The notes beneath the pieces were generated by a model, which did no database searches, was not told the DNA's origin, and saw nothing but the letters and a program-made list of their open reading frames with translations. Shown here piece by piece: positions 53,585 through 57,669 of a DNA stretch of 64,000 bases (positions within the stretch are counted from its first letter, which is position 1; every line of letters begins with the position of its first letter). The DNA comes from an uncultured Bacteroidota bacterium (GTDB taxonomy: Bacteria > Bacteroidota > Ignavibacteria > UBA10030 > UBA6906). The translations under genes were made by a program, and so were the position numbers. Location of the stretch: the NCBI GenBank assembly GCA_963700635.1, contig CAVOYH010000006.1, forward strand, positions 32,001 through 96,000, given 5' to 3'.

Positions 53585-54871
53585 TCACGAGGCCGAAGAC
53601 CAGTACACCTGCCCGTTATTCAGGACGCCAAACGGTTTGCCGGTCAGGCGGTATCCCCCGAACGGACTATTGCGGGATTGTGACCGCGACGAGGGAAGAT
53701 CCACAACCCAATCGGCACCCGGATCGAGGATGGTAAGATTTGCCATTTCTCCCTCTGCGATTCGGATCTCGGGCAGGTGGAGAATCCGCCTGGGGTTCAC
53801 GGAAAACTTTTCAATAATCTGATCCAATGAAAGCACGTTTTTGCCGAGCAGTTCCGTACATGCCAGACCCACCGCGGTTTCAAGTCCGACGATGCCAAAG
53901 GGCGCAACCTGAAATTCCACCTCCTTTTCGTCAAATGAATGAGGTGCATGGTCTGTCGCAATCACGTCGATGGTCCCATCCCGCAGTCCGGCCTTCATCA
54001 TCTCCACATCATCCCGGGTGCGGAGGGGCGGGTTCATCTTGAAATTGGTGTCGTACCCGCGGAGGGATTCATCCGTGAGCACAAAATGGTGGGGAGTCAC
54101 TTCGCATGTAACACTGATTCCCTTTGCTTTTGCCCTGCGCACAGTGTCAACGGTTTCCGCCGTGCTCACGTGGGCCACGTGATACAGTCCGCCCGTATAT
54201 TCCGCGAGCTGGATATCTCGCGCAACCATGATCTCTTCGGCGAGGCGGGGTATAACCGGCAGTCCGAGCAACGTCGCCATAAAACCTTCATTGGCCACTC
54301 CTCCTTTGCTGAGGGAGGGATCCTGCGCATGCTGGATGACGGGCTTCTTGAACATCAGGCTGTATTCCAGGGCCCGGCGCATGATTTCGGCGTCAAACAC
54401 CGGATCTCCATCGTCGGAGAAAGCAATGGCACCCGCGCTGGAAAGTTCGGCGAGCGGCGCAAGGTGTTCGCCTTTACGTCCCATCGTGACTGCAGCAACC
54501 GGATGGACATCCACAAGTCCGTCCATTGCAATTCTGGCTTTGGCCTGTATAAACCGGATCACCGATTCATCGTCGATTGGAGGATTTGTATTAGGCATAC
54601 AGCACACCGCTGAAAAACCACCCGCGGCTGCGGCAGCGCACCCCGTCGCGATCGTCTCTTTGTACTCATAGCCCGGTTCACGCAGGTGCACGTGCATATC
54701 GATGAACCCCGGACTGATGATCTTTCCCTTGAGTTCGATCACCTGTGCGCCCGGCGACGAAAGCGCGCGGCCGAGACGATCGATACGACCATCCACAATC
54801 ACCATATCCAGCGATTCATCCCGACCCGTCACCGGATCTACCAGGCGGCCGTTCTTAAGAAGAAGTTGCAT
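53585..54871 (-). CDS. pyrC: dihydroorotase
   Basis: DMHVHLREPG, MPNT.P, KMNPPLR, IATDHAPH. Confidence 0.97.
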   Translation of the reverse strand: MQLLLKNGRLVDPVTGRDESLDMVIVDGRIDRLGRALSSPGAQVIELKGKIISPGFIDMHVHLREPGYEYKETIATGCAAAAAGGFSAVCCMPNTNPPIDDESVIRFIQAKARIAMDGLVDVHPVAAVTMGRKGEHLAPLAELSSAGAIAFSDDGDPVFDAEIMRRALEYSLMFKKPVIQHAQDPSLSKGGVANEGFMATLLGLPVIPRLAEEIMVARDIQLAEYTGGLYHVAHVSTAETVDTVRRAKAKGISVTCEVTPHHFVLTDESLRGYDTNFKMNPPLRTRDDVEMMKAGLRDGTIDVIATDHAPHSFDEKEVEFQVAPFGIVGLETAVGLACTELLGKNVLSLDQIIEKFSVNPRRILHLPEIRIAEGEMANLTILDPGADWVVDLPSSRSQSRNSPFGGYRLTGKPFGVLNNGQVYWSSAS

Positions 54872-54900: not shown

Positions 54901-55821
54901 TTAGTTTTTTGAAGAGAGAAGGTAGAGCACGGCCATCCGGATCGCCACTCCGTTGAGTACCTGCTGGAGGATCACCGAATGTTCGCTATCCGCGACATCT
55001 GCCGAGATCTCCACATCTCTGTTGATCGGACCGGGGTGCAGGATCGTAATGGCGCGTCCGGCTTTCTCCAGGCGTTTTCGCGTGATACCGTAGAAATTGT
55101 GGTATTCCCGGAGGGATGGAAGGAGCCGGCCCGCATCGCGCTCCAGTTGGATCCGCAGAACATTGAGCACATCGACCGATGGCAGCACGTCCTCGATGTG
55201 GTGGCATACCTCCACGCCCAGCCGCTGGAGATCGCGGGGGATCATTGTAGCAGGTCCGCACACAGTGACCCGCGCTCCCATCGTGATCAACCCGAAAATG
55301 TTTGATCGTGCCACCCGGCTATGGGCAATATCACCGACGATGCAGACATGGAGGTCGTGCAGGCGGTCGAGTTTTTCGCGGATCGTGTACATGTCCAGCA
55401 GGGCCTGCGTCGGATGTTCATGCGACCCATCGCCCGCATTGATCACATTTGAGTCGATGACGCGGGATAGATAGTGCGCTGCCCCTGCCGCGGAATGACG
55501 CATCACCACCATATCAATTTTCATAGCCTCAATGTTGCGGGCCGTGTCCTTCAGGGTTTCCCCTTTGCTCACGCTGCTTCCAACCGAGGAAAAGCCAAGC
55601 ACGTCTGCCGAAAGCCGGCGTTCGGCAAGCTCGAACGACAGGCGGGTCCGGGTGGAGTTTTCGAAAAACATGTTGGCCACGGTCTTCCCCTGGAGGGGGG
55701 GAACCTTTTTGATGGGTCGGTCCAGGACCTCGCGGAAACTGACGGCAGTCTCGAGAATAAGTTCTATATCCTCGCGCCGCATTCCATCAAGTCCAAGAAG
55801 ATGTCTGCTCTGTAACGGCAT
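54901..55821 (-). CDS. pyrB: aspartate carbamoyltransferase catalytic subunit
   Basis: FFENSTRT, HPTQALLD, HSRVARS, HPGPINR. Confidence 0.98.
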   Translation of the reverse strand: MPLQSRHLLGLDGMRREDIELILETAVSFREVLDRPIKKVPPLQGKTVANMFFENSTRTRLSFELAERRLSADVLGFSSVGSSVSKGETLKDTARNIEAMKIDMVVMRHSAAGAAHYLSRVIDSNVINAGDGSHEHPTQALLDMYTIREKLDRLHDLHVCIVGDIAHSRVARSNIFGLITMGARVTVCGPATMIPRDLQRLGVEVCHHIEDVLPSVDVLNVLRIQLERDAGRLLPSLREYHNFYGITRKRLEKAGRAITILHPGPINRDVEISADVADSEHSVILQQVLNGVAIRMAVLYLLSSKN

Positions 55822-55848: not shown

Positions 55849-56394
55849 TTATTCATCCGGATGCATTAGCAGCACCACATCTTCACCGTCCACTTCCTTG
55901 ACATGGACGCGGATGGATTCCTGGGCGGAAGTTGGTATGTTTTTTCCAACATAGTCAGCCCTGATGGGAAGTTGCCGGTGCCCTCGGTCAATGAGCACCG
56001 CCAGCTGGATTGTCCGGGGCCGGCCGAGGTCAATCAACTCGTCGAGGGCCGCACGGATCGTCCGCCCTGTGAACAACACATCATCGATCAAGATGACATC
56101 CTTGCCGGTGATGTCGAACAGGATATCCGTCCCTTTGAGCTCGGGCTGCTCGAGTTTCCCGAGGAGGTCGTCCCGGTAGAGCGTGATATCCAGCGAGCCG
56201 ATAGCCAGTTTCGTCTTTTCCACATCCTCGATAATCCGGGCGATACGGTGTGCAATAAACTCTCCGCGCGTGCGTATGCCGACGATCACGATGTTTCCCG
56301 CCCCTTTGTTTTTTTCCAGGATCTCGTGAGCCAGACGGGTTGCCGTCCGGTCAAACCCATCGTGATCGATGATTTGTGCCTTCAGACGTCTCAT
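55849..56394 (-). CDS. pyrR: bifunctional pyr operon attenuator / uracil phosphoribosyltransferase
   Basis: [42 protein letters not shown]. Confidence 0.97.
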
Positions 56395-56504
56395 GCCAGG
56401 TTCCCGATGTGAAGTGAAAGATGAGGGAGATGAAGAAAAAATGAAAAACCTCCGGATGCCCGTGGCACACGGAGGTTGATACGGCAGTCGTTCGGCAGGT
56501 ACAT
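56391..56504 (-). CDS. putative 37-aa pyr leader peptide ([37 protein letters not shown])
   Basis: ATG 7 nt after AAGGGA; open for 37 codons; its TGA overlaps the pyrR ATG (ATGA). Confidence 0.45.
56435..56477 (-). terminator. intrinsic terminator / attenuator in the pyr leader
   Basis: AACCTCCGTGTGCC-ACG-GGCATCCGGAGGTT hairpin followed by TTTCATTTTTT. Confidence 0.75.
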
Positions 56505-56510
56505 GGTACA

Positions 56511-56546
56511 GTCCCTTCCCTGCCTCTCGGGCAGGATTTAAAGGGG
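56511..56546 (-). promoter_or_regulatory. PyrR-binding RNA hairpin
   Basis: CCCCTTTAAATCCTGCCCGAGAGGCAGGGAAGGG contains the CUUUAA internal-loop motif, a GAGAGGC apical motif and AAGG closure upstream of pyrR. The apical loop is one nt shorter than the usual hexaloop. Confidence 0.75.
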
Positions 56547-56620
56547 TGGGCGATATAGGACTTGAACCTATGACCTCACGGATGTGAACCGTGCGCTCTG
56601 ACCAACTGAGCTAATCGCCC
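56547..56620 (-). tRNA. tRNA-Val (anticodon CAC), CCA not encoded
   Basis: GGGCGATTAGCTCAGTTGGTCAGAGCG-CACGG-TTCACAT-CCGTG-AGGTC-ATAGG-TTCAAGT-CCTAT-ATCGCCC-A forms a complete cloverleaf. Confidence 0.97.
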
Positions 56621-56633
56621 ATCGAATTAGCTC

Positions 56634-56662
56634 AATATAAACAATTACGCCGGCTCATGCAA
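56634..56662 (-). promoter_or_regulatory. sigma70-type promoter for tRNA-Val (and probably pyrRBC)
   Basis: TTGCAT (56662-56657), N17, TATATT (56639-56634). Confidence 0.7.
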
Positions 56663-56694
56663 GCACCGGTCTGGTGCGAGGTTGTTCACCAACG

Positions 56695-56931
56695 TCACCG
56701 GGGACGCTTGAACACGTAGTAGTAGTCTTTGCCGTACGGCGTAACCACCACCAGCTCCCACCCGTCGACTCCAAAAGCGTTAAGCTGTGTCAGATTCAGG
56801 TTTGCACCGTCAGTGTATTCCCAGGTCACGGGTTTGGACCGTTTATCCTGTTGGGCATCCGCCGTGCGCCCTAACACAAATGCGCCGAGTGCACAGACCA
56901 GGATGAGTAGTGCGATACGGACATGTTTCAT
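56695..56931 (-). CDS. small exported protein, DUF4177-like
   Basis: GAGGAG SD; hydrophobic N-terminus; WEY...LNAFGVDGWELV...YVFKR. Confidence 0.7.
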   Translation of the reverse strand: MKHVRIALLILVCALGAFVLGRTADAQQDKRSKPVTWEYTDGANLNLTQLNAFGVDGWELVVVTPYGKDYYYVFKRPR

Positions 56932-56967
56932 GGTGTTCTCCTCTGGGTTAGAAGTACCCTGTGTGAT

Positions 56968-57669
56968 TTATTCGGCACGTTCAAGCAAGAGAATCTGTTG
57001 AACGTTACGGTACAATTGTTCAGGTGTGTAGTCTTCTTCACCAGGGAGCACATATTTCCCGAGGAATTCCCTGCAGATTTCCACACCCGGGCGTCCCGCA
57101 TTCATAGGTTTTGCTCCTTCTCTGATGCAGTAGATCGCCGCCGACTTTATCCCTCTGGTCCACACCAGACGCGCTCCGTTGTTGTCCCCCATTACGCCAT
57201 CGAGAGGCACATCGCGCCGCGTCAGTCTGGGCTGAAGTTCTCTGTAGTGGATCTGGAGATAGTTCATCCCGCCGATGATGAGGCGCTGGCGGGTAATCTT
57301 GCCGACTACATCCCGGAGAAGGCGCTGCTTTTCCGCATCCTCCTCGCGCGAGAGCTGATCATCTCTTTTGGCATACTGTACGTGCAACATGGTCTGATTC
57401 AGAGTGGCGATATCCGCTTCCAGGGGGGACGCAAAAAGGTTCTCCTCTATTTCCTTTCTCCTGTCCTCAAGTTCCGCCACCACCGCCGTCGCCTTCGCCT
57501 TAACTTCCGAAACGGTAAGAGTCTCCAGCCCATTTTCTCCGGTCCGGATCAGCGTCATGACCCCGTCTTCAGGCCGTGTCACGCGGAGGATCCGCAGGTC
57601 GTCCACCAGCGTCAGAAACTGCTGCTCCGTCATCCAGATCCCCGGTGTACGCGGTCGGTCCTCTGTCAT
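56968..57669 (-). CDS. hypothetical protein
   Basis: 233 aa ORF with AGGGAG SD, protein-like composition and a helical or coiled central part; no family recognised. Confidence 0.65.
   Translation of the reverse strand: MTEDRPRTPGIWMTEQQFLTLVDDLRILRVTRPEDGVMTLIRTGENGLETLTVSEVKAKATAVVAELEDRRKEIEENLFASPLEADIATLNQTMLHVQYAKRDDQLSREEDAEKQRLLRDVVGKITRQRLIIGGMNYLQIHYRELQPRLTRRDVPLDGVMGDNNGARLVWTRGIKSAAIYCIREGAKPMNAGRPGVEICREFLGKYVLPGEEDYTPEQLYRNVQQILLLERAE

Follow-up and report, generated by a model that had tools for sequence, protein, structure and literature searches.

The subject of this report is the leader of a pyrimidine biosynthesis (pyr) operon in a stretch of 64,000 nucleotides (nt), hereafter the window, from an uncultured Bacteroidota bacterium of the class Ignavibacteria (assembly GCA_963700635.1, contig CAVOYH010000006.1, positions 32,001 to 96,000). 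In it the gene for a tRNA-Val with anticodon CAC is followed, after a single unpaired base, by a PyrR-type hairpin, an intrinsic terminator and the genes pyrR, pyrB and pyrC. We consider it rather probable that the 5′ leader of the pyr operon begins with this complete and functional tRNA-Val(CAC), within one transcript that would be attenuated by way of leader translation and would later release the tRNA. At the level of sequence comparison, the parts, their order, the abutment of tRNA and hairpin and its conservation are evident, as are a promoter conserved ahead of the tRNA and a junction of tRNA and hairpin that contains neither promoter nor terminator. The features of the locus are listed below, in window coordinates and in the order of transcription; all lie on the minus strand, and ORF stands for open reading frame.

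56657..56662, minus strand: −35-like hexamer TTGCAT (pattern TTGNNN-17-TANNNT)
56634..56639, minus strand: −10-like hexamer TATATT, 13 nt ahead of the first tRNA base (same pattern)
56547..56620, minus strand: tRNA-Val, anticodon CAC (Rfam RF00005, 72.4 bits against a gathering score of 29; also ARAGORN)
56546, minus strand: unpaired C at tRNA position 74, the one base that separates the discriminator from the first pair of the hairpin (RNAfold)
56513..56545, minus strand: PyrR-type hairpin with outer stem CCCUUU/GAAGGG, internal loop AAAU, inner stem CCUGCC/GGCAGG and loop CGAGA
56436..56477, minus strand: intrinsic terminator, with stem 56477..56447 and U tract 56446..56436
56391..56504, minus strand: leader ORF of 37 codons plus stop (translation of the sequence)
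55849..56394, minus strand: pyrR, bifunctional regulator and uracil phosphoribosyltransferase (NF003549, 237 bits against a cut-off of 138)
54901..55821, minus strand: pyrB, aspartate carbamoyltransferase (NF002032, 403 bits against a cut-off of 263)
53585..54871, minus strand: pyrC, dihydroorotase (TIGR00857, 427 bits against a cut-off of 279)

The tRNA, at 56620..56547, is the only one found by Rfam within the window, and the cloverleaf is its minimum-free-energy fold (−26.9 kcal/mol). ARAGORN gives a span 4 nt longer, 56621..56544, owing to an 8-bp reading of the acceptor stem. The discriminator is the A at 56547, and no CCA is encoded after it. CCCCUUUAA, which starts at 56546, forms the 5′ arm of the hairpin, and from the same position the letters read CCCCUUUAAAUCC... 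When the whole region is folded, the tRNA cloverleaf and the PyrR hairpin are retained together. On contig C6, which holds the window, tRNA-Val(CAC) occurs once, and the sole other copy in the six-contig assembly lies on C3, where it likewise adjoins pyrR.

Several lines of evidence bear on whether the hairpin is a genuine PyrR site. The Rfam model of the PyrR binding site, RF00515, aligns at 56548..56441 with 37.1 bits (E 0.0036, at a relaxed threshold in a 1.2-kb search), and matches at E ≤ 1 are present in 32 of 41 related genomes, those of two genomes lying above the cut-off (56.3 and 54.1 bits). The hairpin at 56545..56513 folds with −17.8 kcal/mol in RNAfold, a value reached by 2 of 200 shuffled sequences. 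In an alignment of 36 distinct hairpins from relatives ten columns are invariant, compensatory changes are seen at four of the six inner-stem pairs, and 92.2% of the alignment cells pair, against 47–68% when the 3′ partners are slid. The conserved parts, with covariation, are a CCUUUAA 5′ arm, a GAGAGG-type loop and an AAGG 3′ arm; known RF00515 elements share them, as they share the intrinsic terminator that follows upstream of pyr genes. Directly downstream in the window come pyrR, pyrB and pyrC, so that a bona fide PyrR is encoded next to the hairpin, which we infer to be bound by it. Departures from the RF00515 elements are the sub-threshold score, the leader ORF, the tRNA fused on the 5′ side and the lack of a consistently predicted RNA antiterminator.

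A tRNA-Val ahead of the hairpin recurs among relatives of the window. Of 33 loci around the RF00515 matches of the 41 related genomes, 20 have tRNA-Val(CAC) according to ARAGORN, which detects no tRNA of another kind there; the same tRNA is present in 13 of 21 pyrR loci from named Ignavibacteria. No upstream tRNA on the same strand is seen in any of 59 pyrR loci of other phyla; in two of them a tRNA-Leu lies on the other strand. Once the sets are merged and six duplicates removed, 42 distinct Ignavibacteria loci remain, designated here by L numbers. Also dropped before this count were weak RF00515 matches with no hairpin or pyrR (L027, L029, L032 and L033), a locus with a variant hairpin and a tRNA about 24 nt upstream (L048) and one with only 31 nt upstream (L053). 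In 29 of the 42, tRNA-Val(CAC) lies upstream of the hairpin on the same strand, the tRNA being found in full in 28 and interrupted by masked bases in L037. The gap between tRNA and hairpin is 0–2 nt in 10 loci, 3–5 nt in 7, 12–36 nt in 4, 69–200 nt in 6 and more than 700 nt in 2; gaps of −1 in L024, L030 and L031, a register artefact of the 8-bp acceptor of ARAGORN, are counted as 0.

In a tree of PyrR proteins, read without the mis-extracted L012 (branch length about 10), the ten loci with a gap of 0–2 nt form one clade (support 96/93) with L039 nested within it, and five of the seven with a gap of 3–5 nt form another (95/90). The zero-gap state thus arose once and was then passed on. A class-wide search for a tRNA T-arm followed within 30 nt by the start of the hairpin is positive in 23 of 401 genomes, against 3 of 401 with a reversed control, and the matches are concentrated in two families of the same order (f1, 9 of 14 genomes; f8, 9 of 23). 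Three of them, G068 and G140 from outside the order and G083 from within it, do not have the look of tRNA-Val plus hairpin and were set aside, in number equal to the background of 3 in 401; the match in G050 appears genuine. Judged from these sequence comparisons, the fusion of tRNA and attenuator is not due to chance.

The long spacers of six loci (L001, L004, L010, L011, L017 and L018) consist of remnants of the 3′ half of tRNA-Val, some of them in tandem. A recurring CTTGGCGGGCA word stands before some of them, and in some the T-loop contains insertions. The remnants look like scars of integrative elements that have repeatedly targeted tRNA-Val(CAC).

The promoter is best seen by comparing loci. 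The pattern TTGNNN-17-TANNNT is present in the 70 nt preceding the tRNA at 19 of the 28 loci that bear a full tRNA, against 253 of 8378 random 70-nt windows from the same loci (3.0%). It ends 8–37 nt before the tRNA, its spacer is always 17 nt long and variable in sequence, and TATATT is kept across genera. At the 20 loci with a gap of up to 36 nt, the 75 nt that precede the hairpin never contain the pattern. Of the six spacers of 69–200 nt, five contain no promoter-like motif, and the one match, in L001, falls in a tRNA remnant, 99 nt ahead of the hairpin. Where no full tRNA was found, the pattern lies 19–30 nt before the hairpin in 5 of 13 loci; the tRNA is therefore flanked by the usual pyr promoter on one side and the attenuator on the other.

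The attenuator terminator (−20.3 kcal/mol, z −5.1, none of 200 shuffles as good) has a U tract of 11 nt, 9 of them U, as expected of an intrinsic terminator, and is the first one downstream of the tRNA. Generic scans of 56300..57100 flagged neither element: a sigma-70 scan returned no promoter because the −35 hexamer matches the consensus at only three of six positions, and a simple terminator scan missed the attenuator terminator, probably because its stem contains two 1×1 mismatches. As the criteria of the generic scan were too strict, we rely on the comparative pattern counts and on folding. Terminator arms of the form ACCUCC...GGAGGU, in the window at 56477..56447, are found in many genera; their 5′ arm has the look of an anti-Shine-Dalgarno sequence, and the GGAG-like 3′ arm of the PyrR hairpin is complementary to it.

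A gap of 1 nt cannot hold a terminator, and polymerases transcribing the tRNA must therefore enter the attenuator. As neither a promoter nor a terminator separates tRNA and hairpin, co-transcription is the best reading and the attenuator would act as the terminator of the tRNA. The tRNA-Val and the pyr leader are thus likely to be co-transcribed, in an arrangement that has the layout of a tRNA-mRNA operon: a promoter upstream, and no promoter or terminator before the leader of the coding genes. RNA libraries are consistent with this. In each of four metatranscriptome runs, from four studies, one contig of 178–238 nt bridges the junction between tRNA and hairpin, covering 56511/56512..56628 with 2–3 differences, that is, the whole tRNA and 35–36 nt of the hairpin. 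These contigs derive from relatives in the same genus, with flanks that differ from the window; in the contig from X4 the flanks match a relative of the L025 type and continue into its leader ORF. Twenty RNA runs that contain part of the stretch share at most 0.17 of the sampled words with it, which is consistent with little beyond the conserved tRNA. Much of this was anticipated in a preliminary description of the DNA, made from the letters alone, which had proposed the order promoter, tRNA-Val, PyrR hairpin, terminator, pyrRBC, with tRNA and hairpin directly joined and the attenuator doubling as tRNA terminator. That order holds up, the junction containing the one unpaired C at 56546; the attenuator terminator is the first that polymerases would meet after the tRNA, and the conservation that the description had suggested looking for with the Rfam PyrR model and tRNA calls is found in relatives (29 of 42 loci, 10 of them with a gap of 0–2 nt). 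The promoter that it placed upstream of the tRNA is supported by the comparison of loci (19 of 28) and not by the generic sigma-70 scan.

The leader ORF had been overlooked in that description, and it alters the likely mechanism of attenuation. Its AUG, at 56504, lies 8 nt past the hairpin, whose 3′ arm contains a GGAAGGG positioned as a putative Shine-Dalgarno sequence. The reading frame extends across the terminator to a UGA that overlaps the AUG of pyrR (AUGA). An equivalent ORF with a stop overlapping the pyrR start was found by script in 18 of the 42 distinct loci and by eye in one more, L012; in these 19 the ORF is about 37 codons long and begins 7–10 nt past the hairpin. Three more loci have an ORF that ends within 4 nt of the pyrR start. 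Over the terminator the ORFs of different loci run in all three reading frames, which points to the act of translation, not the peptide, as what matters. Taken as a whole, this analysis of the leader ORF suggests attenuation coupled to translation. A possible link between a GUG codon of the leader ORF and the tRNA-Val was considered and dropped, the sequence of the leader peptide not being conserved.

A close parallel is the pyr leader of Thermus, reportedly described by Van de Casteele and co-workers in J Bacteriol in 1997. There the PyrR site reportedly overlaps the ribosome-binding site of a short leader ORF, which is said to run through the terminator and to end at pyrR, a translating ribosome preventing termination. 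The ORF in the window is alike in having its putative ribosome-binding site in the hairpin, in spanning the terminator and in ending at pyrR. The differences are that the window belongs to another phylum and that its leader contains a tRNA, for which no counterpart is known in Thermus.

On these grounds, the element in the window is probably a PyrR attenuator of the leader-translation type inside a tRNA-mRNA operon, and co-transcription, PyrR binding, the part played by the ribosome and the processing steps may fit together as follows. A sigma-70-type promoter (TTGCAT, 17 nt, TATATT) 13 nt upstream of the tRNA would start a single transcript made up of a short 5′ leader, the tRNA-Val, the unpaired C74, the PyrR hairpin, the leader ORF spanning the terminator, and pyrR-pyrB-pyrC. 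With pyrimidine nucleotides plentiful, PyrR would clamp the hairpin, the 3′ arm of which would be the ribosome-binding site of the leader ORF; no ribosome would then follow the polymerase, the terminator would form, and transcription would yield a tRNA-Val precursor carrying a trailer of about 110 nt. With pyrimidines scarce, a ribosome translating the leader ORF through the terminator region would prevent termination and would re-initiate at the overlapping start codon of pyrR. RNase P would cut the 5′ end of the tRNA, an activity probably other than classical RNase Z would cut its 3′ end, and the CCA-adding enzyme would complete it. The regulatory part of this model follows the Thermus pyr leader.

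A number of observations weigh against this mechanism and bring in other explanations. The hairpin of the window and that of the C3 copy score 37.1 and 37.8 bits and so fall short of the RF00515 gathering score of 54. Eleven of the 42 loci have no qualifying leader ORF, and in about half the ORF is absent or ends elsewhere. In L023, the orthologous copy on C3, folding predicts an RNA antiterminator. The same transcript might accordingly be attenuated as in Bacillus subtilis, with an RNA antiterminator competing with the terminator, PyrR stabilising an anti-antiterminator and the leader ORF being incidental, which we regard as rather unlikely. Such a scheme agrees with L023, where folding without the 3′ arm of the terminator pairs the 3′ arm of the hairpin with the 5′ arm of the terminator (−21.7 kcal/mol), and with the CCUCC in the terminator 5′ arms of many loci, to which the GGAG-like hairpin arm is complementary. 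It agrees less well with the window and most of the 13 loci folded, where the PyrR hairpin persists and no antiterminator forms with the terminator arm; and the recurrence, in 19 of 42 loci and in three frames, of an ORF whose stop coincides with the pyrR start is hard to explain if the ORF is untranslated.

Transcription and conservation are open to other readings too. The bridging contigs reach 35–109 nt upstream of 56628, over the proposed promoter, and may come from carried-over DNA or from read-through of the upstream gene; contigs of this kind cannot show a single transcript, or its ends, strand or level. The tRNA and the pyr operon could even be separate units, abutting as a compact gene boundary, with a pyr promoter that overlaps the 3′ part of the tRNA. 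A TATATC in the T-stem and acceptor region, 5–10 nt before the hairpin, would suit this, as would its presence in the 16-nt tRNA remnant of L039 and the persistence of the pyr operon in relatives with a disrupted tRNA. We hold it to be very improbable: the TATATC does not end in the conserved T and is not preceded, 16–18 nt upstream, by a TTG, the promoter pattern is absent from the last 75 nt before the hairpin in all 20 small-gap loci, and polymerases started upstream would meet no terminator before the attenuator, so that co-transcripts would arise all the same. As for conservation, the zero-gap loci are related and go back to a single event, and their persistence therefore shows tolerance, not necessarily selection. 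In L039, 16 nt of a tRNA 3′ end abut the hairpin and the intact tRNA lies 706 nt upstream; in L015 (identical to L047) and L045 longer tRNA 3′ remnants abut it. Insertions have thus separated the attenuator from an intact tRNA, the link is not obligatory, and the pyr operon evidently persists when unfused to an intact tRNA and its promoter. It is accordingly possible, though we incline to doubt it, that the abutment is a neutral by-product of an integration hotspot at which spacers are gained and lost, that one lineage happened to lose its spacer, and that co-transcription has no regulatory meaning. The single origin of the zero-gap state speaks for this, together with the remnants that fill the long spacers or abut the hairpin and with other tRNAs of the genome that have hairpins from positions 74–76. 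Against it stand the persistence of the zero-gap and 3–5-nt states across clades with strongly diverged flanks and the fact that none of the tRNA-adjacent loci with a gap of up to 36 nt has gained a promoter of its own. Neutrality would in any case be compatible with the transcript proposed here and contests only its adaptive value.

The composition of the assembly affects how its gene inventory is to be read. Of the 182 kb of C6, 153.5 kb align to other contigs, almost all of it collinear with C3:1637785-1828336 at 66–80% identity; the assembly therefore probably mixes two related organisms. The contamination of the bin is 6.73%, and the window may belong to the minor organism. Given such a mixture, the C3 copy of tRNA-Val, attenuator and pyrRBC is probably an orthologue in the second organism and not a paralogue. 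The first 1959 nt of C6 (C6:1-1959) are 98.5% identical to C4:1957-1 in reverse orientation, a repeat or an assembly overlap. Immediately ahead of the promoter in the window is an ORF of 78 amino acids (56931..56695, minus strand) with an N terminus resembling a signal peptide and a weak match to the Sp36 family (34 bits against a cut-off of 50); its C-terminal DYYY..KR motif is kept upstream of the tRNA in L037 and L038. Between this ORF and the tRNA promoter, reading by eye reveals only a weak hairpin with no U tract.

As to how the 3′ end of the tRNA would be made, the preliminary description is not supported. It had remarked that the hairpin starts where CCA would otherwise be encoded; in fact CCA is encoded in only 5 of the 47 tRNA genes of the assembly and unencoded in 42. 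All 47 have a C at position 74, position 75 being A, U, G or C, so that the C after the discriminator is a general feature of tRNA genes here and not specific to the hairpin. This suggests that the 3′ end pathway keeps or recognises C74. The same description had RNase Z cutting directly after the discriminator, between 56547 and 56546, and releasing an mRNA that starts exactly at the hairpin. This now seems improbable to us. In its favour are the tRNA-Val with no encoded CCA, the presence of one enzyme of the CCA-adding or poly(A) polymerase family and a protein of 298 amino acids with a metallo-beta-lactamase fold (C4:713167-714063) that is weakly similar to RNase Z; moreover, in the introduction of a published study, the E. 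coli enzyme is described as able to remove ends such as CA, CU and CCU (PMC7479834). That protein, the best match in a profile search of the assembly and the only candidate resembling RNase Z, scores 72 bits against a cut-off of 293 and leaves model positions 150–212 unmatched; no canonical RNase Z was found there. The trailer of the tRNA-Val begins CCCC, and cytidines right after the discriminator are described, in the same introduction, as strongly suppressing RNase Z of B. subtilis and wheat (PMC7479834). With such a trailer, and no gene above the cut-off in this mixed assembly, the precursor does not resemble a substrate for RNase Z of the B. subtilis type, and the C74 of all 47 genes likewise points to another route.

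Profile searches of the assembly returned RNase E/G and RNase R, and did not find RNase PH, RNase J or RNase Y; an ORF of 748 amino acids, the best match to the RNase PH model, is taken to be polynucleotide phosphorylase (PNPase). Although this inventory mostly reflects the other organism of the mixed assembly, it resembles the endonuclease and exonucleases of the E. coli tRNA 3′ pathway. Stable hairpins, some of them terminators, also begin at positions 74–76 of several other tRNA genes, for example at C2:233800 (tRNA-Gly GCC) and C3:108260 (tRNA-Phe), in a scan that is of qualitative use only, its register being imperfect for several tRNAs. A structure abutting the tRNA is therefore generally tolerated and not unique to tRNA-Val(CAC). 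Taken together with the preceding results, the earlier interpretation is supported as to layout, the first terminator after the tRNA and conservation; its RNase Z step and its remark on CCA are not.

Both tRNA-mRNA operons and PyrR attenuators are textbook arrangements, and no principle is overturned by their combination. The tufB operon has intergenic spacers and, to our knowledge, no regulatory protein-binding hairpin that abuts a tRNA, whereas the gap in the window is 1 nt and the conditional terminator downstream would also end most tRNA transcripts. What the two have in common is a promoter, then tRNA, then a protein-coding gene: in a published account, the tufB operon of E. coli and Salmonella (thrU-tyrU-glyT-thrT-tufB) has one promoter region followed by tRNA genes and then the coding gene (PMC6134099). 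The literature searched yielded no account of a PyrR attenuator joined to a tRNA. In mitochondrial tRNA punctuation and in MALAT1-mascRNA the processing of a tRNA or tRNA-like fold defines the end of a neighbouring RNA with no spacer between them, as tRNA processing would create the end of its neighbour in the window. Those systems are organellar or eukaryotic and use RNase P and RNase Z; in the window the trailer begins with Cs and the putative 3′ enzyme is probably not a classical RNase Z.

The architecture and conservation of the fusion between tRNA and PyrR attenuator are solid, and co-transcription is likely. That the pyr operon is coupled through the tRNA to stable-RNA promoter control is speculation. 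Equally, there is only a slim chance, in our estimation, that the tRNA is a working part of the regulator. Were it so, processed leaders might titrate PyrR: a strong promoter of the stable-RNA type would make many terminated tRNA-leaders, each with a PyrR site, and faster stable-RNA synthesis would feed forward into more pyrimidine synthesis. Or else bound PyrR, one nucleotide from the acceptor stem, might block 3′ maturation of the only tRNA-Val(CAC) of the cell, in which case the supply of the GUG decoder would depend on pyrimidine status.

The system for making tRNA 3′ ends in this lineage is unusual in itself, with C74 in every gene, few encoded CCAs and a canonical RNase Z not found in the assembly. 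If the co-transcript is real, a single RNA would serve as precursor of a tRNA and as sensing leader of a biosynthetic operon, the two being separated by one nucleotide. It would then be a natural case of a conditional terminator ending most transcripts of a tRNA gene, and a regulated mRNA would owe its 5′ end, immediately at a protein-binding hairpin, to tRNA end-processing. The PyrR mechanism with leader translation, as reported for Thermus, would by the same token extend to the Ignavibacteria.

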